From an uncultured Gemmatimonadales bacterium (GTDB lineage: Bacteria; Gemmatimonadota; Gemmatimonadetes; Longimicrobiales; RSA9), in assembly GCA_963741945.1 (NCBI GenBank), contig CAVUKA010000006.1, forward strand, positions 252,486 to 316,485: a stretch of 64,000 bases of DNA, read 5' to 3'. Positions within the stretch are counted from its first letter, which is position 1. The number at the start of each line of letters is the position of its first letter. The translations under genes and the position numbers were made by a program. The notes under the pieces were generated by a model, which had not been told where the DNA came from, ran no database searches, and saw only the letters and a program-made list of their open reading frames with translations. Positions 45,127 through 63,214 of the stretch are shown piece by piece.

Positions 45127-45525
45127 CTACCCGGACCGTTCGAGTGACCACGCCGCGTGCTCCCGCACCAGCGCCTCCTCGTCCTCCAGCGCCTGCCGCA
45201 GCACCGCCACCGCCTCCTCCCGAGTCTCGTCCGCGGACGCCAGCCAGTTCCCCATCGCCACCGCGACGTTCCGCTTGAAGCCCGCGTACCCCGCCCGCCG
45301 GATCGCCGACCCCCGCGTCCACAGGTCCCACTCCTCCCGGGTCATCCGCATCAGCTCGACGAGCGATGGCGACTCCGTGGAGGGCCCGGTCTCCGCGTGC
45401 GGGTGCGGGTGCGTGCCTGACCCCGTGTCCGGCTGCGGCCCCGAAAGCCCGGGCGCGCGAGCCCGGTAGTCCGGCTCCGTCGTCGCCTGAACCAGCTTCG
45501 GTGAGTTCCATGGACACACCTCCTG
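45127..45525 (-). pseudogene. queG: queG 3' fragment, copy 1 (epoxyqueuosine reductase C-terminus)
   Basis: QEVCPWN...GSAIRRAGYAGFKRNVAVAMGNW...LVREHAAWSL; everything upstream, including GCDIC, is absent. Confidence 0.88.
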
Positions 45526-45579
45526 GGTGTTGTGCCGGTTCACCCGTTTCGAGGTACCACTCCGGACCGGCCGCAGAAC
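45500..45579. repeat. Putative att junction 1 (queG half plus 54-bp arm)
   Basis: Arm 45526-45579 is 40/54 identical and ungapped to 54640-54693; imperfect dyad around dinucleotide 45524-25. Confidence 0.7.
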
Positions 45580-45710
45580 CCCCCCCCCGCAACGCACGGG
45601 CGCCTTGCGGGGGCCGGTAACCTCCTCGCCCTCGCGGGGTAATCCTCGTACGGCCAGAACGGTCGCTCAAGACACCGCCGAAGGACGATGCGCTCCATGA
45701 CGATGCAGCA

Positions 45711-48700
45711 ATAGCACTTCCGCGCCTTCTGGCGTTCCTCCGGCCGGCCGCGACCTCCGGCCGGGACGAGCTCCTGGCCGGTCCGATCCAGGGCGCACTT
45801 CTCGGTACCGACCAGCTCGCCGAAAAGGCCCGGGCCGTGGCGCGGCGCGAGGGCATGCGTCCCCCGACGCGGTCGCGCACCCGGCGGCGCCGCGAGGCCG
45901 CCCTCCTCCTCCGCCTGTCCCAGACCCGCCGGATCCTGGACGACGCCCACGCGGCTCTTTCCGCGGGCGCGGCCCGGGACGTGGATGTTGGCCCGGCCGG
46001 CGAATGGCTGCTGGACAACTTCCACGTCGTGCAGGAGCACATCCGGGAGGTGCATGAGGCGCTCCCCCGCGGCTATTACCGGGAGCTGCCCGAGCTCGCG
46101 ACCGGACGACTCGCCGGGTACCCGCGCGTGTACGAGCTCGCCATCGCGCTGATCTCCCACTCCGAAGCGCGCATCGACCTCGAGAACCTGGAGCTCTTCG
46201 TCTCGGCCTACCAGTCGGTCACACCCCTCGCCATCGGCGAGCTGTGGGCGCTGCCCGCCATGTTCCGGATCGCGCTGATCGAGAGCGTGCGCCGCATGAC
46301 GCTGCGCACCATGCGGCGGATGCAGGAGATCGAGGATGCGGACGCGTGGGCGCTGCGCGTCGAGGCCGCCAGTGAGCAGGGGGCAGACGCGCTGGGCCAC
46401 GCACTGGACGCGTTCGTCCGGGCGCCACCGCGGCTGACCGCAGTGTTCATCGCGCGCTTCCTGCACCAGCTCCGGCTGACGCGCGGCGCGTATCTGCCGC
46501 TCGTGGAGATCGAGGCATGGATCAGCGAGCGGATGGTGACCGACGAAGTGGCGTCGGCGCGGGCGACGCAGCACCTGGCCCTCACGCAGGTGATGATGGC
46601 CAACAGCATCACGAGCCTGCGCACGATCGCACAGCTGGACTGGCGCACCTTCGTGGAGCGGCAGAGCGCGATGGAGTCGATCCTCCGCACCGACCCCGCG
46701 GCCTGTCATTCCCGCATGACGTTCGGCACGCGTGACCACTACCGCCACGTGGTCGAGCGCATCGCGCGCCGGACCGGTCGCCCGGAGGAGGGCGTGGCCC
46801 GGATGGCCGTCGACCTCGCGCGCGCCGCAGCGAACGACCATGGCCTGGAGGATGTCCGCGCCCACGTCGGCTACTACCTCGTGGACGACGGGCTCCGCGA
46901 GCTGGAGGCCGCCACCAGGTACCGGCCCCGTGTGTGGGAGGGCCTTCACCGATGGGTGCTGCGGCACCCGGACGCCACCTTCGTCTCGAGCCTCCTCACC
47001 GGCATGGTCGCCGCCCTCGTCGCCGAGCTGTGGCTGGTCGGCCCCGATGCCCGCGGAGTGTGGATCCCGATCCTCCTCCTGGCCCTCATCCCCGCGAGCC
47101 ACGTGGTCCTCGCCGTGGTCGACCAGCTCGTGACGACGCTGCTCCCGCCGCGCACGCTCCCCCGACTCGACCTGAGCGAGCGGGACGCGGTGCCCGCGAA
47201 GCTCCGCACCGCCGTGGTCGTGCCCACGCTGTTCGACAGCACCGCCGCCGTGGACGAGGCGTTCGACCACCTCGAGGTCCAGTTCCTCGCCAACCGGGGC
47301 GCGCACCTGCACTTCGCCGTACTGAGCGACTTCACCGATGCGGCGGCAGAGACCCTCGGCGAGGACGCTGCCATCGTCGCCGCGGCCGTGGCGCGCGTCC
47401 AGGACCTCAATGACCGCTACGCGCCGCTCGGCGGCGATGCGTTCTACCTCTTCCATCGGCCTCGCCGCTGGAACGCGCGCCAGGGCGTCTGGATGGGCTG
47501 GGAGCGCAAGCGCGGCAAGCTGGCCGAATTCAACCGCTTCCTGCGCGGCGGAGCGCGGGACGCCTTCACCACCATCGCGGGCAATGTGGAGCCGCTGGGC
47601 GACGTGCGGCACGTCATCACGCTCGACGCCGATACGGTGCTGCCGCCCGGGAGCGCTGCGGACCTCATTGGCACGCTCGCGCACCCGCTCAACCGCGCCG
47701 TGTACGACCCGGACCGGGGCCGGGTGGTCCGCGGCTATGGCATCCTCCAGCCGCGTGTCAGCGTCACGCTGCCCAGCGCGCACCGGTCCCGTTTTTCGGC
47801 CATCCACTCCGGCCACCCGGGCGTGGATCCCTACACGACCGCCACCTCCGATGTCTACCAGGACCTGTTCGGCGAGGGCAGCTTCACGGGAAAGGGCATT
47901 TACGAGGTCGACATCTTCGACCAGGCGACCCACGGCCGCTTCCCCGAGAACACGCTGCTGTCCCATGACCTGATCGAGGGCAGCTACGCTCGCGCGGGTC
48001 TGGTCACCAGCATCCTCGTCTACGACGACTATCCGGCCAGCTACCTCACGTTCACCCGGCGCAAGCACCGCTGGATCCGGGGGGACTGGCAGCTGCTCCG
48101 GTGGCTGACGCCCCGCGTGCCGGGACCGCACGGCCCGGAAGCCAACCGGCTCCCGATGCTCTCCCGCTGGAAGATCTTCGACAATCTGCGCCGCAGCATG
48201 GTGGAGATCGGGCTGATGCTCTTTCTCGTCGCCGGCTGGCTGCTGCTCCCGGGCTCGGCGCTGGTCTGGACTGCGCTGGCGCTCGGGACGGTCGCGGCGC
48301 CCTGGGTCGTCTCGCTCCTCCTCGCCGCGCTGCGCCCGCCGCTCGACCGGTCGTGGCGGGCATACTACGCCTCCGTCGGCCGCGACGCGCGGACGGCCGC
48401 GCAGCAGCTCGCCCTGGCCGTCGCCTTCCTACCCCACCAGGCGTGGGTGTCGGCCAATGCGATCATCCGCACCCTCTGGCGGCTGGGCGTCAGCAAGCGG
48501 AACCTGCTAGAGTGGGAGACCGCCTCGACGGCGGAACGCGGGGCGGGCACCGGCCGCGCACTCGTGTGGCGGGCCATGGCCCCGGCGGCGGCCGTCGCGG
48601 TGGCCATCGCACTGGTCGCCATGGCGCGATCGGCCGGCACCGACGGGGGCGCGCTCTGGTGGCCCGACCTGGTGGCCATCGGCGGCCTCGCCGCGCTCTG

Positions 48701-51700
48701 GGCCGTGTCGCCCGCCATCGCCCACGCCCTCGGACGACCGCGCGTGCGACGGCGCCGGCCGCTCACGGCGGCCCAGGGCGACAGGGCACGGGATCTGGCG
48801 CTCCGGCACTGGCGCTACTTCGACCGCTTCAGCGATGCGGAGACGCAGTGGCTGGTGCCGGACAACGTGCAGGAAGATCCCGGCGCCGCTGTCGCCATGC
48901 GCACGTCGCCGACGAACATCGGCCTGCAGCTGCTGGCGATCGGCAGTGCCCACGACCTCGGCTTCATCACGCTCGAAGACATGACGCGCCGGCTGGAGCG
49001 CGTGTTCCGGTCGCTGGAGCGAATGCGGCGCTTCCGTGGGCACTTCTTCAACTGGTACGACCTGCACGACCTGAGCGTCCTGGAGCCAGCCTACGTCTCC
49101 ACCGTGGACAGCGGCAACCTCGCCGGCCATCTGCTCGCGGTCCGGCAGGCCTGCCTGGAGGCGCGCCCCGAGCACGGGGACGACGGCGCGGTTCCTCCCG
49201 TGCTGCGCGCCCGGCTGGACGTGCTGGCCAGCCGCGCCGGCGATTACGTCACCGAGATGGACTTCGGCTTCCTCTTCGACGAGGAGCGCGAGCTCTTCTC
49301 CATCGGCTATCAGTTCGCCAGCCGCTCTCTCGACCTTTCCTACTACGACCTGCTCGCATCCGAGTCGCGACTCGCGAGCTTCGTCGCGGTCGCCAAGAAC
49401 GACGTGCCGCTCGACCACTGGTTCCGACTCGGGCGGTCGCTGACCCACGCGTCGGGAGCCACCGCGCTGGTCTCCTGGAGCGGCAGCATGTTCGAGTACC
49501 TGATGCCGGCGCTCGTCATGCGCTCCTATCCCGCCACCCTCCTCGATCAGACGTACCGCGGCGCCGTGCAACGCCAGATCGCCCACGGCGCCCGGCGCAG
49601 GGTGCCCTGGGGCGTGAGCGAGAGCGCGTACAACCTGCGCGACCACCAGCTCACCTATCAGTACCGCGCGTTCGGCGTGCCGGACCTGGGCCTCAAGCGC
49701 GGGCTCGGCCGTAACCTCGTCATCGCCCCGTACGCCACCGCCCTGGCGCTGCAGGTAGAGCCGGACCGCGCGCTGGACAACCTGGCCGTGCTCGCCGGCA
49801 TGGACGCGCTCGGGCCATACGGATTCCGCGACGCCATCGATTACACCCGACCGGATCCCGACCGGGACTACGCCGTGGTGGGCAACTACATGGCGCACCA
49901 CATCGGCATGAGCCTCGTCGCGCTGACCAACGTGCTCACCGGCGACGTGTGGCAGCGACGGTTCCACGCCGACCCCCTGGTGCGGTCGGCGGAGCTCCTG
50001 CTCCATGAGCGCATCCCGCGCCGCCTCGTGCTGCACCCCGCAAAGCCGGCGAGCGCCGAGGGTGCGCCGGCACGCCCGGACGTCGAGGGCCAGGCCGTCC
50101 GCGAGTTCACTGGTCTCCACACGCAGCGGCCCCACGTGGCGCTGCTCGGCCGTCAGCCCTACACCGTGATGGTGACCCACGCGGGCTCCGGGTTCTCGCG
50201 CTACGATGACGTCGCCGTGACGCGCTGGCGCGCCGACGGGACCACGGACGCCATGGGCCAGTTCTGCTACGTGAGGGACGTGACCAGCGACCGCGTCTGG
50301 TCGGCCGCCCACCAGCCGGTGTGCGCCCCGGCCGACGCGTACCGCGCGCTGCTCGCCAGTGACCGCGTGACGTTCGACCGGTCCGATGGAGACATCGAGA
50401 CACGGACCGAGATCAGCGTGGTGCCGGACGACGGCGCCGAAGTGCGCTGCGTCACGGTCACCAACCACGCGGACGACCCCCGGGAGATCGAGCTCACGAG
50501 CTACGGCGAGGTGGTGCTGGGGCCGGCGGACGCCGACCGGGCCCACCCGGCGTTCGCCAATCTGTTCGTCGAGACGGAATGGCACGAGTGGTGTTCGGCC
50601 CTCACCGCCACGCGGCGGCCGCGTTCGGCGGCGGAGCCGGCCCTCTGGTGCGTGCACGTGATGGACGCCGGCACCGCGCGGGTCGGCCCCGTCTCCTGCG
50701 AGACGGACCGCGCCCGCTTCATCGGCCGCGGCCGCACCACCCGGGCGCCGGCCGCTCTCGATGGTCCCGGCCCGCTCTCCGGAACCACCGGCGCCGTGCT
50801 CGACCCCATCTTCGCGCTGCGCACGCGGCTGCGCCTGGCCGCCGGGGAGTCGGCCACGGTGACGTTCACCACGCTGGTCGCCGCCACGCGGGAGGGCGCG
50901 TTCGAGCTGGCCGACCGGTACCACGATCCGCATACCGCCCAGCGCGCGCTCGACCTGGCGTGGACCTCCCACCAGGTCGAGCTGCGGGAGCGGGACCTGA
51001 CGCCGGCGGACGCGGCCATCTTCCAGGAGCTCGCCGGCTGCCTCCTCTATCCCCACCCGGCACTGCGGGCCACGCCGGAGGAGATGGACCGCAATCGGGG
51101 CGCGCAGCCGCTCCTCTGGTCCGCGGGGCTCTCCGGCGACAGGCGCATCATCCTCGCCACCCTCGACGGCACGGACGGGCTGCCGACGCTGCGGCAGGTC
51201 GGCGCCGCCCACCAGTTCTGGCGCCGCCGCGGCCTCGCCGCGGACCTGGTCGTCCTGTTCGCCCAGCCCGCGTCCTACCTGAAGGAGCTGCAGGACCGGA
51301 TCATGGAGACGCTCTTCACCATCGGCGGCACGGAGCTCGATCGGCCCGGTGGTGTCTTCCTCCGCAACGTCGAGTCGCTGGACGCGGAGACGCTGCTCAT
51401 GCTGCGCGCTACGGCCCGGCTCATCCTGCCGTGCGACGGGCGCTCGCTCACGCATCTCGGCGACGTGGTCATGGGGTCTACACCTGGCTCCACAGACCCC
51501 ATGACGCCCGCGACGGCGCCGCGGACCCCCGAGCGACAGCCGGCACGGGTGTCCGCCCTCGAGCGCTGGACGCACATCCGCATACCCGCCCGCAGGTCGG
51601 CCGACCTCCCGCCGCCGAAGCTCGCCGGCGCCACGGATACCGCTCCGCCGGCGTCAGACGCCGCAGGGTCGGGCCAGCCGGGTGATCACACCGCCGTCGA

Positions 51701-54149
51701 CACGGACGGCGCGAGGCTCATGTTCGACAACGGGCTGGGTGGGCTCGATGCCACCGGGGATTATGTGATCCGCGTCGCGGGCGACGCCGTGCCGCCCGCG
51801 CCGTGGGTCAACGTCGTCGCCCATCAGCGGGGCGGGTTCATCGTCAGCGAGCGCGGGGCCGGCTGCACCTGGGCGGACAGCAGCTACTTCTTCCGCCTCA
51901 CGCCGTGGCACAACGACCCCGTCAGCGACCCGATCTCCGACGTCCTGTACCTCCAGGACGAGGCGTCCGGCGACACGTGGAGCGCCACGCCCGCGCCGCT
52001 GGGGCACGACACTGCGTACACCATCCGGCACGGCGCTGGCGAGTCGGTCTTCGAGGCCGAGAGAAACGGCATCGCCACCCGCCTCACCCTCGGCATGGCC
52101 GCCGACGAGCCGGTGCGGCTGTCGGTGCTGCGGGTCACCAATCGCGACACCGTCGAGCGCCGCATCCAGCTCACCGCGTACGTCGAATGGACCCTCGGCG
52201 CCCAGCGCGAGCGCACGATGCACCACGTGCGCACCGCATTCGAGCCGGCCCTCGGCGCGGTCTTCGCCCGCAACCACTTCGACCCGCAGTTCCACGACCA
52301 CGTCGCGTTCTGCGCGCTGAGCGAGCCGGTCACCGGCCACACCGGCGACCGCCGCTCCTTCCTCGGACGGAACGGGAGCGTGAAGGCGCCCGCCGTGCTC
52401 CGGGGGCGTCAGATCTCCGGCGCGACAGGCACCGGCCTCGACCCGTGCGCCGCGCTCCAGTGCGCCCTTGTGCTCGCTCCCGGCGAGTCCCGCGAGGTGG
52501 TGGTGTCCCTCGGCGCCGCCGCCACCGAGGCGGAGGCACGCCGGCTCGTGACCCGGTTCCGCGGCCTGGACGAAGCCACGGCGGCCGCAGCCCGCACGGT
52601 CGAGCAGTGGCGCCAGCGCCTTTCGGTCATCACCGTCCGTACCCCCGATCCGGCGTTCGACGCGCTGCTCAACCGCTGGCTGCCATACCAGACGCTGGCC
52701 TGCCGCATGTGGGCGCGCTCGGCACTCTACCAGAGCAGCGGCGCCTACGGCTTCCGCGACCAGCTCCAGGACGCCCTCGCCCTCGTTCACGCCGAGCCGG
52801 CGCTGGCGCGGGAGCACATCCTGCGCGCCGCCGCGCGCCAGTTCCTCGAGGGCGATGTCCAGCACTGGTGGCACCCGCACACCGGCGCCGGCGTGCGCAC
52901 CCGCTTCTCCGATGACCTCGCCTGGCTGCCCTGGGTCGTCGACGAGTACGTCACCCGGACCGGCGACGGCTCCGTGCTGGACGAGTACGTGCCCTTCCTG
53001 ACCATGCGCCCCCTCGAGCCGGGCGAGGACGAGATCTACGACGTACCCGGCACCAGTGATGAGCACGGCAGCGTCTACGAGCACTGCCTGCGCGCGCTCC
53101 GTCGCGCGTCCACGGCGGGGCCCCACGGGCTGCCGCTCATCGGCACGGGCGACTGGAACGACGGAATGAACCGCGTCGGCGTGGAGGGCCGGGGTGAGAG
53201 TGTGTGGCTCGCCTGGTTCCTCATCGCCACCCTCCGCGCGTTCGCCGTGCGCGCCGCGGAGCGCGGGGATGGCGAGATGGCCGGTGAGATGCGCCGCCAG
53301 GCCGAAGCGTACGTGGCCGCCGTGCAGGCCCACGGCTGGGACGGCGGATGGTACCTGCGCGCATTTTTCGACGACGGCACACCCCTCGGCTCTAGCGACA
53401 GCGACGAATGCCGCATCGACTCCATCGCGCAGAGCTGGAGCGTGATCTCCGGGGCCGGCGCTCCCGGGCGCCAGGCCCGGGCCATGCGCGCCCTCGAGGA
53501 GCACCTTGTGGACGAGGACGCCCGGGTCATCCGACTTCTCACGCCCCCGTTCGACGAGTCCCCGAACGATCCCGGGTACATCAAGGGGTATCTGCCCGGC
53601 GTGCGGGAGAACGGCGCCCAGTACACCCACGCAGCCGCCTGGGCCGTCCTCGCCACCGCGCGTCTGGGCGGCGGCGGTCGCGCGTTCGAGCTGTTCCAGA
53701 TGCTCAATCCGCTGCTGCACACCCGGACCCCTGAAGAGGTCGCCACTTACAAGGTCGAGCCCTACGTCATCGCAGCGGATGTCTATACGGCGCCCGGTCA
53801 CCTCGGCAGGGGCGGCTGGACCTGGTACACCGGCGCGGCGGGCTGGATGTACCGGGTCGGACTCGAGGCCATCCTCGGCTTCGACAGGCGCGGCAACGTG
53901 CTCCGCATCACGCCCCGCGTGCCCGCCGCCTGGCCGGAAATGACCATCGAGTACCGCTTCGGCACCTCGCGCTACACGATCGTGGTGGACGAGCCCGGCA
54001 CATTCGCCGACGGCGCCCGGACGGAGGTGACCTTCGACGGGTGCGTCCTCGATGGCCCGGATATCCCGCTGGTGGACGACGGGAGGGCGCACCGGGTGCT
54101 CGTGCGGGCCACGGCGTCGGCAACGCGACTCTCCGCCGGCGGGCCGTAG
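45711..54149 (+). CDS. ndvB: Cyclic beta-1,2-glucan synthase (NdvB/ChvB/Cgs; GT84 plus glucoamylase-like plus GH94 domains)
   Basis: EWLLDNF, WMGWERKRGKL, ITLDADT, GILQPRV, LLSHDL.EG, RWIRGDWQ, TSPTNIG, SWSGSMFEY, QSSGAYGFRDQLQD, GDWNDG, RENGAQYTH. Conserved-looking coding extends upstream of GTG 45837 to a probable ATA start. Confidence 0.95.
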   Translation: MALPRLLAFLRPAATSGRDELLAGPIQGALLGTDQLAEKARAVARREGMRPPTRSRTRRRREAALLLRLSQTRRILDDAHAALSAGAARDVDVGPAGEWLLDNFHVVQEHIREVHEALPRGYYRELPELATGRLAGYPRVYELAIALISHSEARIDLENLELFVSAYQSVTPLAIGELWALPAMFRIALIESVRRMTLRTMRRMQEIEDADAWALRVEAASEQGADALGHALDAFVRAPPRLTAVFIARFLHQLRLTRGAYLPLVEIEAWISERMVTDEVASARATQHLALTQVMMANSITSLRTIAQLDWRTFVERQSAMESILRTDPAACHSRMTFGTRDHYRHVVERIARRTGRPEEGVARMAVDLARAAANDHGLEDVRAHVGYYLVDDGLRELEAATRYRPRVWEGLHRWVLRHPDATFVSSLLTGMVAALVAELWLVGPDARGVWIPILLLALIPASHVVLAVVDQLVTTLLPPRTLPRLDLSERDAVPAKLRTAVVVPTLFDSTAAVDEAFDHLEVQFLANRGAHLHFAVLSDFTDAAAETLGEDAAIVAAAVARVQDLNDRYAPLGGDAFYLFHRPRRWNARQGVWMGWERKRGKLAEFNRFLRGGARDAFTTIAGNVEPLGDVRHVITLDADTVLPPGSAADLIGTLAHPLNRAVYDPDRGRVVRGYGILQPRVSVTLPSAHRSRFSAIHSGHPGVDPYTTATSDVYQDLFGEGSFTGKGIYEVDIFDQATHGRFPENTLLSHDLIEGSYARAGLVTSILVYDDYPASYLTFTRRKHRWIRGDWQLLRWLTPRVPGPHGPEANRLPMLSRWKIFDNLRRSMVEIGLMLFLVAGWLLLPGSALVWTALALGTVAAPWVVSLLLAALRPPLDRSWRAYYASVGRDARTAAQQLALAVAFLPHQAWVSANAIIRTLWRLGVSKRNLLEWETASTAERGAGTGRALVWRAMAPAAAVAVAIALVAMARSAGTDGGALWWPDLVAIGGLAALWAVSPAIAHALGRPRVRRRRPLTAAQGDRARDLALRHWRYFDRFSDAETQWLVPDNVQEDPGAAVAMRTSPTNIGLQLLAIGSAHDLGFITLEDMTRRLERVFRSLERMRRFRGHFFNWYDLHDLSVLEPAYVSTVDSGNLAGHLLAVRQACLEARPEHGDDGAVPPVLRARLDVLASRAGDYVTEMDFGFLFDEERELFSIGYQFASRSLDLSYYDLLASESRLASFVAVAKNDVPLDHWFRLGRSLTHASGATALVSWSGSMFEYLMPALVMRSYPATLLDQTYRGAVQRQIAHGARRRVPWGVSESAYNLRDHQLTYQYRAFGVPDLGLKRGLGRNLVIAPYATALALQVEPDRALDNLAVLAGMDALGPYGFRDAIDYTRPDPDRDYAVVGNYMAHHIGMSLVALTNVLTGDVWQRRFHADPLVRSAELLLHERIPRRLVLHPAKPASAEGAPARPDVEGQAVREFTGLHTQRPHVALLGRQPYTVMVTHAGSGFSRYDDVAVTRWRADGTTDAMGQFCYVRDVTSDRVWSAAHQPVCAPADAYRALLASDRVTFDRSDGDIETRTEISVVPDDGAEVRCVTVTNHADDPREIELTSYGEVVLGPADADRAHPAFANLFVETEWHEWCSALTATRRPRSAAEPALWCVHVMDAGTARVGPVSCETDRARFIGRGRTTRAPAALDGPGPLSGTTGAVLDPIFALRTRLRLAAGESATVTFTTLVAATREGAFELADRYHDPHTAQRALDLAWTSHQVELRERDLTPADAAIFQELAGCLLYPHPALRATPEEMDRNRGAQPLLWSAGLSGDRRIILATLDGTDGLPTLRQVGAAHQFWRRRGLAADLVVLFAQPASYLKELQDRIMETLFTIGGTELDRPGGVFLRNVESLDAETLLMLRATARLILPCDGRSLTHLGDVVMGSTPGSTDPMTPATAPRTPERQPARVSALERWTHIRIPARRSADLPPPKLAGATDTAPPASDAAGSGQPGDHTAVDTDGARLMFDNGLGGLDATGDYVIRVAGDAVPPAPWVNVVAHQRGGFIVSERGAGCTWADSSYFFRLTPWHNDPVSDPISDVLYLQDEASGDTWSATPAPLGHDTAYTIRHGAGESVFEAERNGIATRLTLGMAADEPVRLSVLRVTNRDTVERRIQLTAYVEWTLGAQRERTMHHVRTAFEPALGAVFARNHFDPQFHDHVAFCALSEPVTGHTGDRRSFLGRNGSVKAPAVLRGRQISGATGTGLDPCAALQCALVLAPGESREVVVSLGAAATEAEARRLVTRFRGLDEATAAAARTVEQWRQRLSVITVRTPDPAFDALLNRWLPYQTLACRMWARSALYQSSGAYGFRDQLQDALALVHAEPALAREHILRAAARQFLEGDVQHWWHPHTGAGVRTRFSDDLAWLPWVVDEYVTRTGDGSVLDEYVPFLTMRPLEPGEDEIYDVPGTSDEHGSVYEHCLRALRRASTAGPHGLPLIGTGDWNDGMNRVGVEGRGESVWLAWFLIATLRAFAVRAAERGDGEMAGEMRRQAEAYVAAVQAHGWDGGWYLRAFFDDGTPLGSSDSDECRIDSIAQSWSVISGAGAPGRQARAMRALEEHLVDEDARVIRLLTPPFDESPNDPGYIKGYLPGVRENGAQYTHAAAWAVLATARLGGGGRAFELFQMLNPLLHTRTPEEVATYKVEPYVIAADVYTAPGHLGRGGWTWYTGAAGWMYRVGLEAILGFDRRGNVLRITPRVPAAWPEMTIEYRFGTSRYTIVVDEPGTFADGARTEVTFDGCVLDGPDIPLVDDGRAHRVLVRATASATRLSAGGP

Positions 54150-54204: not shown

Positions 54205-54639
54205 TCACCGGACTGATCGCTCGAATGCCCACGCCGCGTGCTCCCGCACCAGCTCGCTCTCGTCCGCCACGGCCTCCCGCAGCACCGCCACCGCCTCCTG
54301 CGGCGCCTCGTCCACGGACGCCAACCAGTTCCCCATTGCCATGGCGACGTTGCGCCTGAAGCCGGAATACCCCGCCCGCCGCATCGCTGACCCCCGCGTC
54401 CACCGATCCCACTCCTCCCGCGACATCGACATCAGATCCACGAGCCGCGGCCCCGAGGTGCCCGGCAGCGAAGCGGCGCCCGGTGAGCCCGCCGCGCCCG
54501 GAACAGGGGTGGTCGAATCGCCGCGAAGCGGCGGCGTTAGGCCGGAGGCCGAAGGCGATCGAACCTCGCCCCGCGCCAGGTAATCCGCCTCCGCCGTGAC
54601 CTGAACCAGCTTCGTCGAGTTCCACGGGCAAACCTCCTG
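54205..54639 (-). pseudogene. queG: queG 3' fragment, copy 2
   Basis: QEVCPWN...GSAMRRAGYSGFRRNVAMAMGNW...LVREHAAWAF; same breakpoint as copy 1 but a different linker. Confidence 0.88.
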
Positions 54640-54693
54640 GGAAATGTGTCGACTCACCCGTTTCGAGATTTCGTTGCGGACGGGGCGCAGAAC
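54614..54693. repeat. Putative att junction 2
   Basis: Homologous to junction 1 and shares TCACCCGTTTCGAG; marks the left edge of the AT-richer island. Confidence 0.7.
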
Positions 54694-54805
54694 TGTAAGG
54701 AAGTAGGAGGGCGGAGGGCACGCGACTAGCGGCGTGTCGATAGCGGGGCAAAGGGACAAGAGGGCGACGCGACCCTCAAGCCCTATCAATGGGTAGTCGC
54801 GACAA

Positions 54806-55790
54806 CTACGTCCCCGGAGGACTGGGGGCAGCTCCGGGGCCGAGGTCGAGCGGCATCCTCTCCGAGCTCCCGTGTCCTACTGCTACAATGCCGTTATGGA
54901 TGAGATCCCCAAGCCACCGGGCGCGGTGAGCGCGAAGAGTCTTCGGGCTGTTCCGCCAGTAGACTGACGAAGCGACGAAGCGGAGTAGGTATGCTTGTCG
55001 CAGGTCCACCTTGTCCCAATAATGACGCGCGCGAACGTGATCAGGGCGAAGATATGGGTTCGCCCTAGCAGCAGCCGACTCCGCTCCGGATCGAAGACCT
55101 CATTGTGCAGAGGGATCGACAGATCGACCACTGCCTTTCGAGCATCCGTGCCGTGCGGTGGGCCGTCGCCGAACTGCACCGAGATCCGCTCGGGGAGGCA
55201 GTCGGTAAGATCGACGACAATGGCGCCCCCGTGGTAGCGGGGGCCGATCTCTGTCTGCTTCGCCGCCTCTGAGATAAGCCGCCGGGGGTCCACCTTCCCC
55301 GCTGGACGCTTGACTTCGACGGGATATCTTGAGAGGCCGTTCTCCACCACGAAATCTGGGCGCCGGCCCTTCGCAGTCGTGATGACACCAGTTGGCGTTC
55401 CTGAGTGAGCGAGCATCGCCCCAACCCAGAGCTGGCTCTGGTACTGAGCCGCGGTCGTTCCCCCGACCCCTAGAGTCCCCCCACCGAGTGCTGGAGATCT
55501 ACGGCCAGGGGCTGGAGTTCGTCGTCGGGTAGAACGGCCGCGATTTCGGCGAACTCCTGTGCATCGCGAGCGGCATGAGCTACCGCCGCCAGTTCAGATT
55601 CTGCCGTCGGGAAGCTGCCCGCGGCAGCCACACGACGGAGGAGCGCAGCGCTCCGGCCGAGACGCCCGGCGTCAATGACGCGAATACCCCATGCACGTAG
55701 GGACGCCACGGCCTCATCCATTCGGTCCGCAAGATCCGCCATACGTTCGGGAGTGAGAAGAGCCGCGTCTTCGGGTTGCGCAATTCTCAT
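54806..55790 (-). pseudogene. PD-(D/E)xK nuclease-like protein, frameshifted (three ORF pieces)
   Basis: ORFs 55470-55790, 54883-55416 and 54806-55009 join into one protein; RPDFVV...VEVKRP motif. Confidence 0.6.
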
Positions 55791-55803
55791 CGCGCCATGG
55801 GGA

Positions 55804-58800
55804 TCATGGCAGGTCCCGCTCTTCCGCCCATTGACGGGCCCTTCTGGCCTCCTCCCGGGCTGATTGCTCTTCGACAGCCGCCCATTCCCGGATCCGACGG
55901 GCCGGGTGGTTGAGGAATCTCCGAGCCACTGCAGCCTCCGCCTCATGCTCGGCCGCAATGTCGCCGCTGTAGACTTTGAAGCTATTCGTTCCCGCTGCGA
56001 ACTCGTGGAAGACGCGATCGTCTGTCTCAAACCGCGTCAGCAGCCATTCGGTGAAAGCCGGCACCACAGCGTGGTCATCCGAATCGATGTGCGGGGGTAC
56101 CAGAATGCCTGGCAATCTTTTGGGCCCCCTCGACGCCCACCCGTTCCAGCCACGCCATCTTGACTTGATCCGGTATCGATTCGAACAGGTTCCGATAGGT
56201 CCCAATGTGGAAGCGCCAGCCGACCAGTATCATCTAGCATGACACGCCCTAAGGCTTCCATCGTGATCTGGGGATCCTGGCGCGAGACTACGCTCAGTAC
56301 CTGCTGGACCTGGTCTTCGGCGCCGACCGGTCCATGTCCCAGTAGCCGCGCCGCGAACTCTGCCGCGCGTCCTGGGTCGTGGTTGGCCATCGCCGCCGCG
56401 ACGGTGCCCCACCAGTAGCTCTCCGGGGCCTCGTCGGCTGGCGTGCTCTCCGAGGATCTGCCAATGAATTCAATGAGGCGGGGCACCTCTACAAGTAGCG
56501 GCGGAGGAGCCTCCTCCAGGTCGCGTGGCAGCACTCTGGCGAGGGAATCGAGCGCGATTCGCTGGGCACGCTCATCCCCTTGGTCAGTGGCCGTGGCAAA
56601 CCGTTCGAAGAGTAGAGCCACATCTTCGTCATTCAGTTCGTCCAGACGCCCGAAGTTCGCGGGGTTCAGATAGCCGATGGGTACCCTGCCTTTGTCAAAG
56701 AGCCGAAGTACTCGTCCTAATGCTCCGACGGGTGCGCCCGCGCTTATGGCGATCGCTGCCGTGTTCTCCGGACGCTCATGCTCGTTCGCGTCCAGCCACT
56801 CGATCAGACGGTCAGCGTGTCGGGGATGCTCGCTCATTAACCCTCGCACATAGCCCCGAGCCAGAAGATCTGTGCCATCGTCGAGGGTGATCCACAGCAC
56901 CATTTCCAAAAGGGTAGCATTAGGTCGCGTTGGCCGAGCGCCTCTCCCAACTCCCCTGCAGCAACAGCTTCCTCGCTGGTTAGCCATGGAAGCTCCGACC
57001 GAAGAGCTTCATGGTCTGCGACGAGTTCGTCAGCTAAGGCAGCCAACTCCCGGTCCCAAGCATCGCTCTCGAGCCGCCCAGTTCCCCAGCGCTGCCGACC
57101 AACCGTGGATACGAGCCGGCCGTGCATGCCCTGTCCTATCAGGGCAGCTCGCCACTCTAGTAGCTGGTCCCGAAGCTCCAATGTGCCTTCGGCGTCATAC
57201 GTAAGGGCGGCATCGATGGACTCGAGCACGGCCACCTTGGCCGCGTCAGCCAATTCGACTTCGTCCAGGGATGCACGTGCCTGCGGCAGATAGCCTATGG
57301 CAGCTAGTCGGCGCAGGTTTCGAGCGAGTATCGCGATTGCCGCCTCGCGTGTTGCGGGCTCGAGGTGAAGCGCTTCCCTTATGAGCGCTAGCGCCGTTCT
57401 GAGTGCGTCCTGCTGCTCGCCATGTGTGCGGGGACGCCATTCCGCCGGTGGGATACGACCGGCTACGACCGGCGGCCCCAGGGTACGCGTGGCTCGCCAA
57501 TCAAGAGGAGACTCCAAGGCCGACGTTGCCACCCGCCGGACCTCGTCGACGTCGTCGTGCAGGCGCTCGCGGAGCAGAGACAATCGTTCTGCAAACGGGG
57601 TGGCGGTGCCGGAGAGGTGGATTCTGAAAAGCTGCTGCCAGATCCCGGTGGCGTTGTTTGATATATCAGGCTCGCTCTCAGCGGCGGCCAGACGAACGAG
57701 AATGCGTTCCGCATCAGCAAAGAACTCCGGAAACTGGGCAAACCGCTCGGCCAACCAAACCAGTCCTCGCCGGGGGCCCCAGCGTCCGCCGGCTTGAGCG
57801 GAACCCGTTATGCCGCGAAGCGCATCCAGATCAGCGCCATCGATGAGCTGTCGGACCACTGGGAGGTACCGATCTGGATCGGTATCGGTCAGCGCTACAA
57901 GCCTATCGACCGTCTCCACATCTCTGAGATCGGCAGTGGTGAGGGCGTCGGCCCAGCGCCGAAAGTAGTCGGCGCACACGCGCCGAACCTCCTTAGATCC
58001 GCTGCGCCATACCCGGCCGAGGAATGCGTCAACCAGTTCTGCGGGGAGAGAGGCCAAGAAGGCCTCGGCATCTGGCTCTATCCAGCGCCGCCAGGCTTCA
58101 TCGAATACGACCTGAGCGACGATCTCCGGGGTCACATAGAAGTACCGTCCTGCCTGCGCGGCGAACCCCGGACCCTCGTGCATCTGACGTAAGGCGTTGA
58201 CCATCTCCTTACGGGGGATCTCCGTCAGGGAGCAGAGCCGCTCCAGTTCGCCAGCCACCTCTCCGTTGTGACCGATCTTCGTTACGAGCGAGAGCGCCGC
58301 GAGGCACTCAAGCTGTTGGGGAGAGAGCCGTAGCCGCAGGTAATCTCCAACATGAGGCAGGGCAGGGCCTACATCCCCTGTGTCAGCGATCAGTGCATCG
58401 TGCCGACAAAGGTCAGCCGCAAGACGCGGAAAGCCTTCCGATAGGCGTGCGTACGCCCTGCGGCGGCGGTCTGGAATATCCGGGAAGTTCGCTTCCAGCA
58501 CCGCATCGACAGACTCGTCGGCATCTTGCCCATCGACAGCTCCGGATCGGGGGTAGCCGGTCTGGCCAAGGAGTTGTCGATCGCAATGACCCTGATGCGG
58601 TTAGAATGCCCGGACAGTAGCTCGTGCAGCTTGTGGCGTCCGGCCGGACCACACTCATCAGCCACCACGACGGCCCGGGTGCGCTCGTCGTTCGCGAGCA
58701 GCCGTGCAACATGCAGCACGGTTCCCTCGTCGTTGCAGTAGACGGTTGTACCGACCGCGCCCGGGGCGGCAGACACTACCTCGAAGACAGTTCGAGTCTT

Positions 58801-59480
58801 GCCGATTCCGGCCTCACCCTGGACCGTGCGAACAGCTGCCGCCGGTGTCATGCCGAAGTCAACGTGGGCGGCGAGCGATTCCTGTACTCCTGCCCAATCC
58901 GGTACGGGTACGTAGACCCTGGTGTTCGCGCGCGCGTTGGCCTCCCAGGCTCCCAAGTGGAGAACATCACGCGCGAGCGCCGGCTGAAAGAAGGAGAGGA
59001 CAAACCCGGGGTACCGATTCGCAAGTGCGGCGAGTTCGTCCGCAGTCACGACGCGAGCTGGCGGAGCTCCCGGGGTTATCTTTCGGGCTGCCGCGGTCAG
59101 GTCCATTTCCCACTGCGTTCAGTGGGGCCGGGCATGCTGTCGGCCAAGGCGAGCCGGAAAGCGTCGCCACTCTCAATGCGCTCCCTCACGAAAGAGCCAT
59201 CGAGCATGTCGTTGGTGGACACGTTCCGGTATTCGGTTCCCTTGTACTGCCATACGCTGGGGGACTCGAACCACCCCGAATCGTCACCATTTAGAGCGAC
59301 GCGCACGGTGGTATCGACACCGCCGTCCGGTATGTTTGTGCGGATGTTTGTTTCCACGTCGGCGTCCACGGCTCCGCAGACTGCAGCGTGGGTTCGGAGG
59401 AGGCCGTCCGCGAAGGAGGTGAACGGCACCCCTCCGCTGCCACGAAGGGCGAATATCCGGTCGGGGGTTATCGAGATCAT
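55804..59480 (-). pseudogene. Large nuclease-like + P-loop NTPase + helical-repeat protein (STAND-like), split by indels
   Basis: GGAGG RBS; N-terminal PDGGVD...WQYK; Walker A GEAGIGKT; Walker B VVVADE; long alpha-helical C-terminus; shifts near 59120, 58520, 56925, 56225, 56110. Confidence 0.72.
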
Positions 59481-59668
59481 CTGATCCTCCCGGGGCAAAC
59501 CGGTCCCCGCTTGGCCTGCTCGTTTTCTCGGTCTGCCGGCCTAGAAGCGGTCAGGCAGGTCTCTTGGCAATCTAGCCACTTCACACTCCTCTTCACAACC
59601 GCTCGCCAGAGGCTTATGTTGGTGCATGGCGATTCAGCTTTGCCGACCACCACGACGCGCGGGTACAC

Positions 59669-60468
59669 GTGAGCAACAGCAACTCACCCCTTGAGGGACC
59701 CCCTCCTGCAGAGGTGCCCTTGGCAAACGCCCCGCTTGTACGGGTAATTGCACAAATCCGGTTCCCCCTTGTCGCCTCGATCGAAAAGCGTGACTTCATC
59801 GGGTCCTTTCAGGAGGCCATCCGGAGGACGTATCCGGTCTTGCGACCCGAGCAGACGAGATCGGTGGTCTTCGGCCCAGAAGGGATGGTTGAGGCGAGAA
59901 CTGGCAACATTTGGCGCTTCAGCTCGAAGGATGGGAGTTGGCGCGTTGCGCTTGCCCCGGACTTCCTTGCGCTGGAGACTGGGAGATACACGAGCCGGGC
60001 TGACTTCGTCGATCGCTTCCGTACCGTACTACGGGCCTTGGCTGATCACGTCGAACCGCAAGTTACGGATCGGCTCGGCGTCCGCTATATCGATCAGGTG
60101 TCTGGAGACCACTTCTCTGATCTTCCCACACTCGTCAGGCGCGAAGTCGCCGGCATCTGGAGTACCCCCCTCGCCGGTCACGCCAGCCAGAGCATTGCCG
60201 AGAGCCTTTTCACGCTTCCGGATGGGTCGGGGAACTTGAAGGCACGGTGGGGGTGGTCCCGCGGAGGCCACAGTGGATCCAGCTGCCATTGACCCGCTTG
60301 ATACCCCTAGCTGGATCCTGGACCTCGACGCGTTTGCGGCTCGTTCTCAGACCTTCGATGTTGATGAGGTGGTCAGGCAGACAACAGCGTTTTGCTGAGA
60401 GGATTTACAGCTTCTTCCGGTGGACAGTCACGACGGAATTCCTTCGGCGCTACGGAGGTGACGTATGA
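59669..60468 (+). CDS. TIGR04255-family protein (frameshifted about 60250-60390)
   Basis: LANAPLVRVIAQIRFP, WRFSS..G.W.V.L..DFLALET..Y, RLGVRYID, then WILDLD and IYSFFRW in other frames. Confidence 0.8.
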
Positions 60469-61166
60469 CGGCCCAACCGCAAGTCACAAATCAGGGGACC
60501 ACGTTCACGGATTCCTCTCCGTTGGAGGGAATTCGGCAGAAGACGCCGCGCTGGCTGATCATCAGTGGATCTCTCGCGATCGCCGGCACATCTTCGGCAG
60601 GTCCGCATCGGGCTTGGAGCGACCTCTACGTACCTCAGTTGGACGCCACGGCCGCCTCGGACAGACTGCTTGTCCGCCAGTGTGCGCCGGCGCAAGCTGA
60701 GACACCGGAGGCAGCGATCGCCACGCTTCGCCGCCTCTCAGGGCTGACATGGGATCAACTCGGCGAGCTATTCGAAGTCTCCCGTCGGAGCGTGCATTTT
60801 TGGGCTAGCGGAAAACCATTGAATGCTGCCAATGAAGCTCGTCTAATGCGCGCTCTGGCAGTCATTCAGTATGCAGACCGCGGGGATCCAGAACTCACTC
60901 GACGAGCGCTCTTCGAGCCTGTAGGAGGGTTGGTGCCCTTCGACTTGTTGGCGAGGCAGGGCTTCGAGGAGGCGCGGGACCTTCTTGGCGAGGGGGCACG
61001 ATCCTCAGCCGTCGCAATGACCGACCTGAGCCCGGTAGCCAAGCGGGCGAGACAACCCCTGCGCCCAGAAGAGTTGGCGGATGCGCGCCACGACCAGGCG
61101 CACCGAGATCTGGAGGGCAGCCGACCAGCGCGTACGATCCGGAATGCCCGACGAACGCGCGGTTGA
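60465..61166 (+). CDS. XRE-type HTH protein with extended N- and C-termini
   Basis: LRRLSGLTWDQLGELFEVSRRSVHFWASG; ATGA overlap with the upstream gene. Confidence 0.82.
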   Translation: MTAQPQVTNQGTTFTDSSPLEGIRQKTPRWLIISGSLAIAGTSSAGPHRAWSDLYVPQLDATAASDRLLVRQCAPAQAETPEAAIATLRRLSGLTWDQLGELFEVSRRSVHFWASGKPLNAANEARLMRALAVIQYADRGDPELTRRALFEPVGGLVPFDLLARQGFEEARDLLGEGARSSAVAMTDLSPVAKRARQPLRPEELADARHDQAHRDLEGSRPARTIRNARRTRG

Positions 61167-61932
61167 GATCGATGCGCAAGGTATCAACGACGCCTTAGCC
61201 GTATGGCGCCAGGGCGATTATGTGCTGGGCGACCACTGGTTTCTGTACCGCTTGGCCGTCAGGGCTCCCCTAACCGAGGCTGCCTCTGTGGCGGCAGCCG
61301 AGGGAGTCGACGCAGCAGAGGCGCGAGTGGCCGGGTTGATGGTCGCCACTCAGACCTGTGACATTGTCAGGGCTTGCTCGGAGAGGCCATTCGTGGAGGT
61401 CACTCCACTCGTGCAGGTCGACGCGGACACCTTGGAGGAAGTCCGCAAAGGGCGCCAACCTCGTTACGCATACATCCCCGGCGCTTCCGACGATTACCTG
61501 GTCGCTGATTTGGACCGTGTGATGACGGTAGAGAAGGGGGTAGTGGCCGAGTGGGACCGTAACGCAGGTTGCGAGGACGACGACGAACGTCGCCGGCTGG
61601 GCCTGAATCTGGCCCGTAAGAGAGTTCGAGCAGCCTTCCCGAACGACTTCGTCGCTTTCGCCTCCGGACTTCGTAACAGAATCCTGAAGAAGCATGGCAA
61701 GGACAGCGACGAGGGACGGGCGCTACGAGCGTTACGGGAGATCAGAGTCCGTGCTGCCCCGGCACGGGATGCCGACGCGGTCGATCTGACCTTCTTCTTC
61801 ATTCGAGAGGACGACCAGCCGGAATTCGAGCGGAGCGGGTGGGACGTGTACCTCGAGAAATGGCTCGCCCGTCTACCGGCCAGCGGCCGCTTCAAGTCCG
61901 TCGACGCCCTGGTCCAGCCGCTCAAGGACTGA
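61144..61932 (+). CDS. Hypothetical protein with PemK/MazF-like motif pattern
   Basis: WRQGD, VATQTCDI, PFVEVTP, VADLD, RAAFP; tail LTARDYVESDPLDLDHLS follows a probable 1-nt deletion near 61929. Confidence 0.65.
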   Translation: MPDERAVEIDAQGINDALAVWRQGDYVLGDHWFLYRLAVRAPLTEAASVAAAEGVDAAEARVAGLMVATQTCDIVRACSERPFVEVTPLVQVDADTLEEVRKGRQPRYAYIPGASDDYLVADLDRVMTVEKGVVAEWDRNAGCEDDDERRRLGLNLARKRVRAAFPNDFVAFASGLRNRILKKHGKDSDEGRALRALREIRVRAAPARDADAVDLTFFFIREDDQPEFERSGWDVYLEKWLARLPASGRFKSVDALVQPLKD

Positions 61933-62326
61933 CCGCCCGGGACTATGTCGAGAGCGATCCACTCGACCTGGACCATCTCTCCGAACCGGCCGAAGAGTGC
62001 TCTGCCGAGTCCTTCAACTCCTCATCCTGTCGTCACGCCGCATTTTCGTTCCCGAACCGAAGCGGGATATGCGGATCAGCTTCCCACTTCGGGTCTTCCG
62101 TCGTTGAAGACCCACCTTCAATTCTTGAAGCCGCACCCAGCCACCTGAGCGCACAATCCAGTGGCAAGCGGAGTAGCCGCACTAGCAGCGACCAACGGCT
62201 CTCAGAGCTTCGCGGTGCTCCCGCCACATGCTCACCGCCCCCGTTCAAGGCAACGATTAGCTGGGTATTCAGTCCATGAGCTGCAGGACCTGCTCGGTCC
62301 GGTCCTCCCGGGCCTCAAGAGCGATC

Positions 62327-63133
62327 CTATGCGCTTCCTCGAGGCGAGACCGGGCTTGGGAGATGGCGGATCCTCGAACCCCTCCACGCGGCGGCCTCCG
62401 TCAGGAGCGGCCCCAAGGTTCCAATGAACTCCACCCGCTCGTCCCGCGACCAGCTTGCCACGTCGGTGGTCCGGAATGTGGCGCGCACGACGCCCTTCCG
62501 CCCCTCCCTCCATTCGAATGCCGGCGCGTGTTGCTCCTTCGTCGACGAGGCCCTGACGGCGGCAAGGATTCGGGCCGGCAGCGGGTCCTCCGGACCAGAA
62601 GCAATCGCCGAGAGCTTCACGATTCCCAAGCCGGCAAGATCCTCGGGCGCGAGACCTGCCTCAGCAATGCGCTCCGGCGTGATAGCGTTGCCCGTCCGCA
62701 CGTACATGCTGGCCTTGCCCTCGCTGAACTCCTCCCGCTCCGCGAGCGCCGCCTGAGTCATTCCGGCGGCGCACATGGACGCATAGTACCAGCAGTCCTC
62801 AAGCGCTGTCCGAGATTCGGTGGTCTTATCAGCGTCGAACGCCAGTTGCAGCACGCCGGCGTCGTCGAGATCGTCGCGCACCACGGCGGGCACCGTTTCC
62901 CAACCGAGACGACCCGCTGCCAGCTGCCGCCGGTACCCAAGGACGGTGAGGTACTTGGGACCGTCGGCTACGGGCTCTGGCGCGGGCCGCACGACGAGGG
63001 CCTCAGCCATTCCGTTCCCAGCCACGGACCGGCACAGGGACTGGAGCCGCCTTTCGTCCATGATGCGGGGCGGCAGGATTGGATCCCGAGTCAGATCCTC
63101 CAGAGGTATCTCGATCACGTTGTGCGTGCTCAT
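62327..63133 (-). CDS. ParB/RepB/Spo0J-family protein
   Basis: LCRSVAGNGMAEALVVRP, GYRRQLAA..LGWETVPAVVR, HTH MTQAALAE; C-terminus may be frameshifted. Confidence 0.8.
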   Translation of the reverse strand: MSTHNVIEIPLEDLTRDPILPPRIMDERRLQSLCRSVAGNGMAEALVVRPAPEPVADGPKYLTVLGYRRQLAAGRLGWETVPAVVRDDLDDAGVLQLAFDADKTTESRTALEDCWYYASMCAAGMTQAALAEREEFSEGKASMYVRTGNAITPERIAEAGLAPEDLAGLGIVKLSAIASGPEDPLPARILAAVRASSTKEQHAPAFEWREGRKGVVRATFRTTDVASWSRDERVEFIGTLGPLLTEAAAWRGSRIRHLPSPVSPRGSA

Positions 63134-63214
63134 CTCGCGCTCCAGGTACGGCCGTCGCCTCGTTCTTCTGAGATACGCTCAAGGCGCATTTCGCGTTTGA
63201 CTCCCGCGCAGGCC

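Follow-up and report, generated by a model that had tools for sequence, protein, structure and literature searches.

A segment bordering displaced queG fragments in Gemmatimonadota is probably an attachment-site arm that also encodes the tail of a serine integrase

Introduction

Serine integrases are valued tools of genome engineering, and how the direction of their reaction is set is an active question. In the mycobacteriophage BPs, which uses a tyrosine recombinase as integrase, the phage attachment site (attP) lies inside the repressor gene, and integration changes the C-terminus of the repressor. Integration-dependent immunity of mycobacteriophages such as BPs is the subject of a published account (PMC4557955). 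The archaeal 'suicidal' (SSV-type) tyrosine integrases have attP inside their int gene, and in the corresponding passages of a review self-disrupting recombinases are stated to be restricted to archaea (PMC8371274). For large serine recombinases (LSRs), parts of the study by Rutherford et al. 2013 describe an attP half-site of 25 bp with a zinc-ribbon-domain motif at positions 16–24, whereas in attB the motif is positioned 5 bp nearer to the center of the site (PMC3783163). Here, a 64,000-nucleotide stretch of DNA (the window) has been analyzed, which is derived from an uncultured Gemmatimonadales bacterium of the lineage Gemmatimonadota, Gemmatimonadetes, Longimicrobiales, RSA9 (assembly GCA_963741945.1, contig CAVUKA010000006.1, positions 252,486–316,485). 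The window contains two copies of a 57-nucleotide segment, referred to as the arm, each of which borders a displaced 3′ fragment of queG, the gene for epoxyqueuosine reductase. The original prediction, made from the window alone, held that the arm seems to encode a conserved peptide antisense to queG. Comparison with related genomes indicates that the arm is probably the island-side half of the attP of an LSR that integrates into queG, and that the same nucleotides probably also encode the tail that the integrase would have in the excised state.

Results and discussion

Two arms at the edges of displaced queG fragments

The arms are located at positions 45524–45580 and 54638–54694 on the plus strand. 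Their plus-strand translations, WVLCRFTRFEVPLRTGRRT and WEMCRLTRFEISLRTGRRT, are exactly those noted originally and are identical in 14 of 19 residues, and the nucleotide sequences agree in 42 of 57 positions. The reading frame of these translations is referred to as the peptide frame. The 15 base differences comprise nine in third, five in first, and one in second codon positions. Six codon differences are synonymous, as had been listed, and five are replacements (V/E, L/M, F/L, V/I, and P/S), of which three had been named. When translated in the queG frame, the two arms share 13 of 20 residues, and the remaining four frames give 9–11 identical residues of 19–20. The covariance model of the arm described below (R1) scores arm 1 with 62.3 bits and arm 2 with 61.4 bits.

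Each arm is the 5′ border of one of two diverged queG 3′ ends, which are encoded on the minus strand. The likeness of the arms is not a product of chance, because they are the edge of a diverged direct repeat of 450–490 nucleotides (blastn E = 9e-74 between the copies). Repeat finding resolves it into the direct-repeat families D1 (45134–45364 and 54215–54445, 231 nucleotides, 84%) and D2 (45458–45579 and 54572–54693, 122 nucleotides, 79%). The homology between the copies ends sharply at 45580 and 54694; the arm is therefore the 57 nucleotides directly 5′, in the orientation of queG, of the start of queG similarity. The displaced fragment of copy 1 (45127–45523, minus strand) reads QEVCPWNSPKLVQ... 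and then the HEAT-like end, and corresponds to positions 251–336 of TIGR00276, and that of copy 2 (54205–54637, minus strand) corresponds to positions 262–336. Both have HEAT matches in Pfam and cover the C-terminal portion of QueG, which extends from Q-E-V-C-P-W-N to the HEAT-like end. The QueG residues F-G-C-D-I-C are not encoded by the arms, which in the queG frame read ...K-R-V-S-R-H-I-S. The peptide frame is open only over 45491–45700 (70 codons) and 54605–54706 (34 codons, with the stop at 54704–54706), and is closed upstream in both copies by a TGA antisense to the 'VQ' codons of queG.

Arms and queG arrays in related genomes

A sequence-only covariance model built from 11 arms detects arms in 25 of 73 genomes of the family, with up to seven copies per genome. 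The arm always sits where the similarity to queG begins. The arm alignment (A3) comprises 36 covariance-model matches in the fetched loci, and 26 of its rows were used for column statistics after the removal of two duplicates, one partial second match, and seven weak or indel-bearing rows. The counts given below for arm context, antisense stops, and motif spacing include one or two loci from the unpublished genomes G016 and G020, and no claim depends on them.

The protein of copy 2 used as a query has a match in 37 of 41 related genomes, many of which contain several queG 3′ fragments. In the genomes G001, G007, G019, and G028, cargo genes separate an intact queG from one to three queG fragments further downstream, and the same layout is found in G061. 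The fragments in these relatives are preceded by sequence resembling the arms of the window, not by native queG sequence. The cargo includes genes for an arabinofuranosidase, a Sde182-like protein, Fic, LarA, KdgT, a DUF2254 protein, a Na/H exchanger, and an ADOP-type permease. Thus, queG is a hotspot for islands in Gemmatimonadota, with cargo as varied as glycoside hydrolases, transporters, Fic proteins, and kinases.

Two irregular arrays have been observed. In G013 (locus L036, contig C2 at about 511.8 kb), one additional T exactly at the crossover codons shifts the reading frame of the 3′ part of an otherwise intact queG; the shift is either genuine or due to a sequencing error. The displaced fragment of the same genome (L051, at about 480.3 kb), which is 31 kb away, has a native-type start with a 3′-end fragment of a tRNA directly before it. 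In G007 (contig C189, L035:13951–14424), a fragment of an IS91-family Y2_Tnp transposase (PF04986) directly follows the intact queG inside the fragment array. This fragment prompted consideration of an IS91/Y2 transposase as the acting enzyme, and the idea was rejected, as G000, the assembly that contains the window, has no such gene. Tyrosine integrases were rejected as well: none is located near the queG arrays of G001, G007, G013, G028, and G006, and none of the six in G000 adjoins an arm. There are no tRNA genes in the window or adjoining arms that could have served as the target, and RNAalifold applied to 11 arms yields no consensus pairs expected of an RNA or an attC-like hairpin.

The arm resembles the attP half-site of a large serine recombinase

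The attL and attR sites of the island in G061 have only CCAGGA in common. Such a short identity suits serine integrases, because a shared central dinucleotide suffices for these enzymes. Inspection of G061 and G073 allows attP to be reconstructed from the arm and the island 3′ end as CGGGTGA-N30-[TA]CACCCG, with CA at the midpoint. The site thus combines a short identity of attB and attP with a pseudo-palindromic attP of about 50 bp. In the window, the corresponding crossover dinucleotide would be TG on the plus strand and CA on the queG strand, at 45524–45525 in copy 1 and 54638–54639 in copy 2, which are the first two bases of the segment translated in the original prediction.

The distance from the motif CGGNTG to the CA is 16 nucleotides in all 17 intact queG genes, one of which (L022) is from G016, and 21 nucleotides in all 11 arms compared. 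This is the 5-bp shift between attB and attP that is known from LSRs, and therefore the arm has the appearance of a P half-site, and native queG that of a B half-site. The candidate zinc-ribbon-domain motif of the P half-site in the window is TCACCCGTTT (45540–45549, plus strand; 54654–54663 in copy 2), which is the reverse complement of AAACGGGTGA. An intact queG with an island-borne 3′ end, accompanied by a far displaced fragment, is present in G061, G001, G007, G019, and G028. The arm is very probably an attachment-site arm of an LSR.

In relatives, the recombinase gene extends antisense to queG and across the crossover

The genome of G061 is complete in a single contig and contains an intact queG at 4739485–4740666 (plus strand; TIGR00276 positions 2–336, 317.6 bits). 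An arm and a displaced queG fragment are located 39 kb downstream on the same strand, with DNA of lower GC content in between. The first gene of this island, which is convergent with queG, spans 754 codons from stop to stop, or 744 amino acids from the first methionine. Its product contains Resolvase (37.3 bits) and Recombinase (32.8 bits) domains followed by a cysteine-rich and coiled-coil region. The recognizable domains end at the position of the queG stop codon, where the LSR frame has no stop. The frame continues for about 180 codons (544 nucleotides) antisense through the queG 3′ end and across the codons for C-Q-E-C-C-P to a stop 80 nucleotides past the crossover, in the antisense of the queG 5′ part.

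Homologs or remnants of the LSR that are convergent with queG were found in 8 of the 73 family genomes with the LSR core (residues 1–563) as the query. At each of the six loci tested, a single tblastn high-scoring segment pair extends from the LSR C-terminal domain through the antisense tail. The full-length LSR of G052 stops exactly at the crossover because the host cysteine codon is TGT. A database search with residues 480–744 of the G061 LSR retrieved 29 proteins, most of which carry Resolvase (PF00239) and/or Recombinase (PF07508) domains, and 27 of which reach the crossover. All 20 near-full-length LSRs among them extend to ...[H/Q]-T-S at the crossover; seven end there, another seven end seven residues later, and six continue for at least 26 residues further. 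The remaining nine proteins comprise seven that extend to the crossover, one that stops inside the tail, and one attR open reading frame (ORF) with an arm peptide at its end. The two named matches, from Gemmatimonadetes bacterium SCN 70-22 and Gemmatirosa kalamazoonensis (the latter P0025, of 725 amino acids), place the LSR family in Gemmatimonadota.

The recombination site is therefore inside the integrase frame, which is open to or beyond the crossover in G061, in G052, and in all 20 near-full-length proteins. All recognized LSR domains are upstream of the crossover, and only the extreme tail changes on integration; the catalytic part is not separated from the rest of the enzyme. According to the original prediction, the peptide of the arm could be the severed C-terminal tail of an element gene spanning attP, possibly that of the recombinase, and a frame fusing to the tail on excision should be sought. 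The LSR frame of the relatives, which reaches the crossover on the strand opposite the island-borne 3′ end of queG and there coincides with the peptide frame, agrees with this; the window's own assembly, which lacks an LSR, does not supply the gene. A fusion was found in contig C95 of G068, where a decayed LSR frame, which lacks its N-terminal half and contains two stops, continues through the tail and into an arm peptide. LSR tail and arm peptide thus do occur fused in nature.

Proposed integration mechanism

The comparisons suggest that LSR islands of Gemmatimonadota integrate into queG at the codons for C-Q-E-V-C-P, with the LSR presumably acting as the enzyme at these sites. One end of the island would contain both the LSR gene and a replacement for the queG 3′ end, the latter being antisense to the LSR's own 3′ extension, and the opposite end would carry the arm. 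Integration would join the 5′ part of the host queG to the island 3′ end, and queG would be regenerated. It had been proposed originally that integration splits queG; instead, the island brings a replacement 3′ end, and the match of the G061 gene to almost the whole of TIGR00276 is that of an intact gene. The old queG 3′ end would stay downstream behind the arm as attR, and the window would hold two such relics in series.

The inner 25 or so nucleotides of the arm would constitute the integrase half-site. From the crossover to a stop 20–26 codons further on, the arm would form the last part of the LSR ORF on the excised circle, and therefore integration would swap the conserved C-terminal 20–25 residues or so of the integrase. 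The new end of the LSR after integration would be whatever lies antisense to the 5′ part of the host queG. Provided that the tail is translated, the exchange may matter to the enzyme, and state-specific isoforms could provide a built-in directionality or a commitment switch.

The arm as a probable coding sequence

At the crossover, the LSR frame encodes S-W, and this W is the first codon of the peptide of the original prediction. Within the first 19 codons of 31 arms, stops occur in none of the arms in the peptide frame, in three arms in the queG frame, and in 3–23 arms in each of the other four frames. The accumulation of stops over many arms, which would speak against coding according to the original prediction, is thus not seen. 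The peptide frame ends 20–26 codons after the W in 19 of the 31 arms, with several different endings, and the full range is 20 to 97 codons. The arm on contig C5 of G000 and that of G001, which belongs to the same genus, are 95% identical over 74 nucleotides. By inspection, this identity starts about 8 nucleotides to the fragment side of the crossover, in the Q-E-V codons, and ends 3 nucleotides after the peptide-frame stop. In three arms of another subfamily, the homology ends at the stop codon itself, also by inspection.

A profile of 17 arm peptides was compared with 1.84 billion representative sequences and matched 106 proteins, two of which (P0040 and P0098, long and with multiple matching stretches) were set aside as repeats. 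The others are short ORFs, and 66 of the 104 end within eight residues of profile position 30 (mode 6, 37 of 104). The search for proteins ending in the tail, suggested in the original prediction, thus recovered the expected ends in short ORFs and no protein of LSR length with the match at its end.

Column diversity in the 26 arms is 0.30, 0.37, and 0.49 at the second, first, and third codon positions of the peptide frame, respectively (54 columns, permutation p = 0.006). The ratio of nonsynonymous to synonymous differences (pN/pS) is 0.58 in the peptide frame and 0.75 in the queG frame. The codon-level check proposed originally therefore favors the peptide frame by this ratio; the contrast between the first and second positions is not significant, and seven weak or indel-bearing rows are among those excluded. 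In the distal 27 nucleotides of the arm, outside the 25-bp half-site, the respective diversities are 0.27, 0.42, and 0.57 (p = 0.004). By contrast, the periodicity is flat in the proximal 27 nucleotides (p = 0.22).

Alternative explanations and contrary evidence

Several observations weigh against an arm that encodes the integrase tail. The third codon positions are common to the peptide and queG frames, as the original prediction had pointed out, and the contrast between the first and second positions has p = 0.14–0.17. Because this contrast alone is not significant, the choice of frame rests on the stops, the ORF ends, and the LSR frame. In copy 1 of the window, the peptide frame extends 58 codons past the W. 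The search that gave the set of LSR-tail proteins used the tail itself as the query and thus favored open tails. The antisense frame is stop-free in 3 of 5 LSR-adjacent queG 3′ ends; the two others have one stop each, and both are located beside decayed LSRs. An open frame by itself is weak evidence in a gene with 70% GC, as 4 of 23 queG 3′ ends that lack an LSR are likewise stop-free in antisense. An intact LSR ORF ending in the arm peptide is present neither among the 29 tail matches nor among the 106 profile matches. A degenerate attP pattern combining the arm and the island 3′ end has no match in 401 genomes of the phylum, which says little because only 7 of these besides G000 belong to the family. 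No serine recombinase (PF00239 match) is encoded in the G000 assembly, so that the association with an LSR depends on other genera.

The queG 3′ ends in the family are of two sequence types. Those linked to an LSR read C-P-[F/Y]-T-R-K-F-S... and mostly lack antisense stops, whereas displaced fragments and many intact genes read C-P-W-N-S-P-K-L-V-Q...D-Y and have one to three antisense stops. It further counts against the proposed history that the two fragments in the window belong to the 'NSPKLVQ...DY' type and that each contains two antisense stops. LSR islands of the 'FTRKFS' type that simply inserted one after another do not account for such fragments.

Some of these points would fit an arm that is a DNA site only, consisting of the P half-site of the LSR and perhaps a site for a directionality or accessory factor. 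The open frame would then be a by-product of the high GC content and of third positions shared with queG-derived sequence, and the tail would be untranslated or irrelevant. The inner half of the arm, in which the periodicity is weak, is compatible with a half-site of an LSR. The tails in the integrated state range from 0 to more than 100 residues, as though the enzyme tolerated many different ends, and the frame that is open without an LSR and the missing intact fusion point the same way. However, the three-nucleotide periodicity is strongest in the distal part of the arm, where no half-site is expected, and none of the 31 arms has a stop in the peptide frame. The homology of arms between species ends at or within 3 nucleotides of the stop of the frame, and in all 20 near-full-length LSRs the frame remains open as far as the crossover. 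It is possible that the arm has no coding function, but this is considered rather unlikely.

Alternatively, the arm could be read in the queG frame. It would then provide a brief leader and the start codon (the conserved GTG in K-R-V-S-R) for a separate protein consisting of the HEAT-like C-terminal part of QueG, of which several copies are kept. The queG frame is open in 28 of the 31 arms, the GTG is retained in most of the well-preserved ones, the fragments have open frames with HEAT matches in Pfam, and the variation at third positions fits this frame equally well. However, one of the three arms with a stop in the queG frame (G087) has it past the GTG, and the cysteines of the G-C-D-I-C motif of QueG are gone from the arm. 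Furthermore, the periodicity is strongest upstream of the GTG, and in the queG frame the second position varies more than the first. Arms with no queG fragment behind them are present in G000:C5, G066:C5, G070:C144, G080, and G060. A stand-alone QueG fragment is thus a highly improbable purpose of the arm.

The second suggestion of the original prediction, an independent plus-strand micropeptide beginning at the aligned TTG/ATG, is hardly credible: a start is possible at codon 3 in both window copies, with a 20-amino-acid product in copy 2, but the aligned codon specifies I, F, D, E, or T in many arms, the product lengths differ widely, the conservation begins at the crossover ahead of any start codon, and the LSR frame accounts for the same codons.

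The source genome and the surroundings of the arms

The G000 assembly consists of eight contigs with a total of 4.09 Mb and 70% GC, and the window extends to the 3′ end of contig C6. The 5′ part of queG (TIGR00276 positions 1–235) is located on contig C4, where it runs off the first base and ends in ...G-C-D-I. The end of contig C4 coincides to the base with the inferred crossover, where arms and native queG converge on CAGGAGG. The junction expected to hold the LSR gene is thus an unassembled contig end. The first 38 bases of contig C4 have no exact match in the metagenome contigs scanned. In four sequencing runs, represented only by short, low-depth, and uninformative Logan contigs, no contig bridges an arm or the crossover and no joint is present at the arms; stretches without cover in these runs were not used as evidence. 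Contigs C7 and C8 start inside tRNA genes, and three tyrosine integrase genes (C1:1401643, C3:5373, and C6:4070) are located 4–10 kb from contig ends. The breaks of the assembly seem to coincide with mobile elements.

The GC content to the right of arm 2 changes from about 0.72 to about 0.60–0.65 and remains there up to the contig end. This foreign DNA (54695–64000), of which arm 2 is the P end, has no DNA relatives among the 72 other genomes of the family and no real similarity to the island of G061, and its ten ORFs have no PHROG matches and only weak ones in Pfam. The ORFs at 54883–63838 are nearly without family matches, and several of the long ones look frameshifted. A gene for a ParB_N protein is located at 62327–63133 (minus strand), and there is a weak match to STAND/AAA nucleoside triphosphatases at 58390–59106 (minus strand).

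The sole gene between the two arm-plus-fragment units (45837–54149, plus strand) encodes a 2770-amino-acid protein related to GH94 enzymes and cyclic beta-1,2-glucan synthases (PF06165, 3e-150; PF17167, 1.7e-120). It has GH94 supersandwich and catalytic, glucoamylase, and GT2 domains, and its GC content is that of the host. The two arms in the window do not delimit a single element; each is an attR-type relic, left by one of two successive insertions. The third arm of the genome (C5:106348–106421) has no recognizable queG fragment behind it and is followed by a short degenerate stretch that contains an inverted TCACCCG. This arm is possibly the fossil of an attP-like or a secondary site.

Comparison with known systems

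A literature search found no paper on queG or epoxyqueuosine reductase as an attachment site or on such islands of Gemmatimonadetes; supplementary tables of island databases, which were outside the search, may list queG. A natural family with attP inside the integrase frame would provide directly testable state-dependent integrase isoforms, and the integrase tail over the regenerated end of a host gene would be a long region of sense and antisense dual coding. The queG system also offers a new pair of attB and attP sites with a clear 5-bp shift between the half-sites. It is conceivable, but at present a tentative and rather doubtful idea, that the integrase rewrites its own C-terminus, with isoforms dependent on the circle or the host that bias integration or excision and with about 150–180 residues dual-coded wholly in antisense to a functional, captured part of a host gene, and that it is the first counterpart among serine recombinases and in bacteria of the archaeal integrases with the attachment site inside the gene.

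Like the large serine integrases of the Listeria A118 family, Bxb1, and phiC31, as portrayed in parts of PMC3783163, the queG LSR has Resolvase and Recombinase domains followed by a cysteine-rich coiled-coil region. Its sites also agree with the description given there, in the very short identity of attB and attP (CCAGGA), in the pseudo-palindromic attP, and in the motif that is 5 bp nearer to the center in attB. By contrast, the ORF of the queG LSR has no stop after the last domain; judged from its sequence, it continues for about 150–180 codons antisense to a captured fragment of the host gene and crosses its own attP.

The integrases of SSV-type elements, as outlined in passages of PMC8371274, share with the queG LSR an attachment site inside the integrase frame, the alteration of the int gene on integration, and the combination of int and att in one compact module. 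Unlike them, the queG enzyme is a bacterial serine recombinase that would exchange a non-catalytic tail of about 20–25 residues and is not cut in two. The queG islands also follow the Islander principle (PMC4383910), in that the island restores the split target, leaves the displaced 3′ fragment at its far end, and generates tandem fragments by repeated insertion. The targets of Islander islands are tRNA and tmRNA genes, whereas that of the queG island is a protein gene and the enzyme is a serine integrase. The restored part of queG comprises about 140–150 codons, which, unlike in Islander islands, would be dual-coded with the tail of the integrase. As in BPs, integration of a queG island would change the C-terminus of a protein of the element, with attP within its gene; however, it is the integrase's own tail that would change, and not a repressor. 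Mechanistically, the element corresponds to a serine-integrase island with regeneration of the target gene, and its unusual feature would be an attP inside the integrase frame that overlaps, in antisense, the captured end of the target gene.
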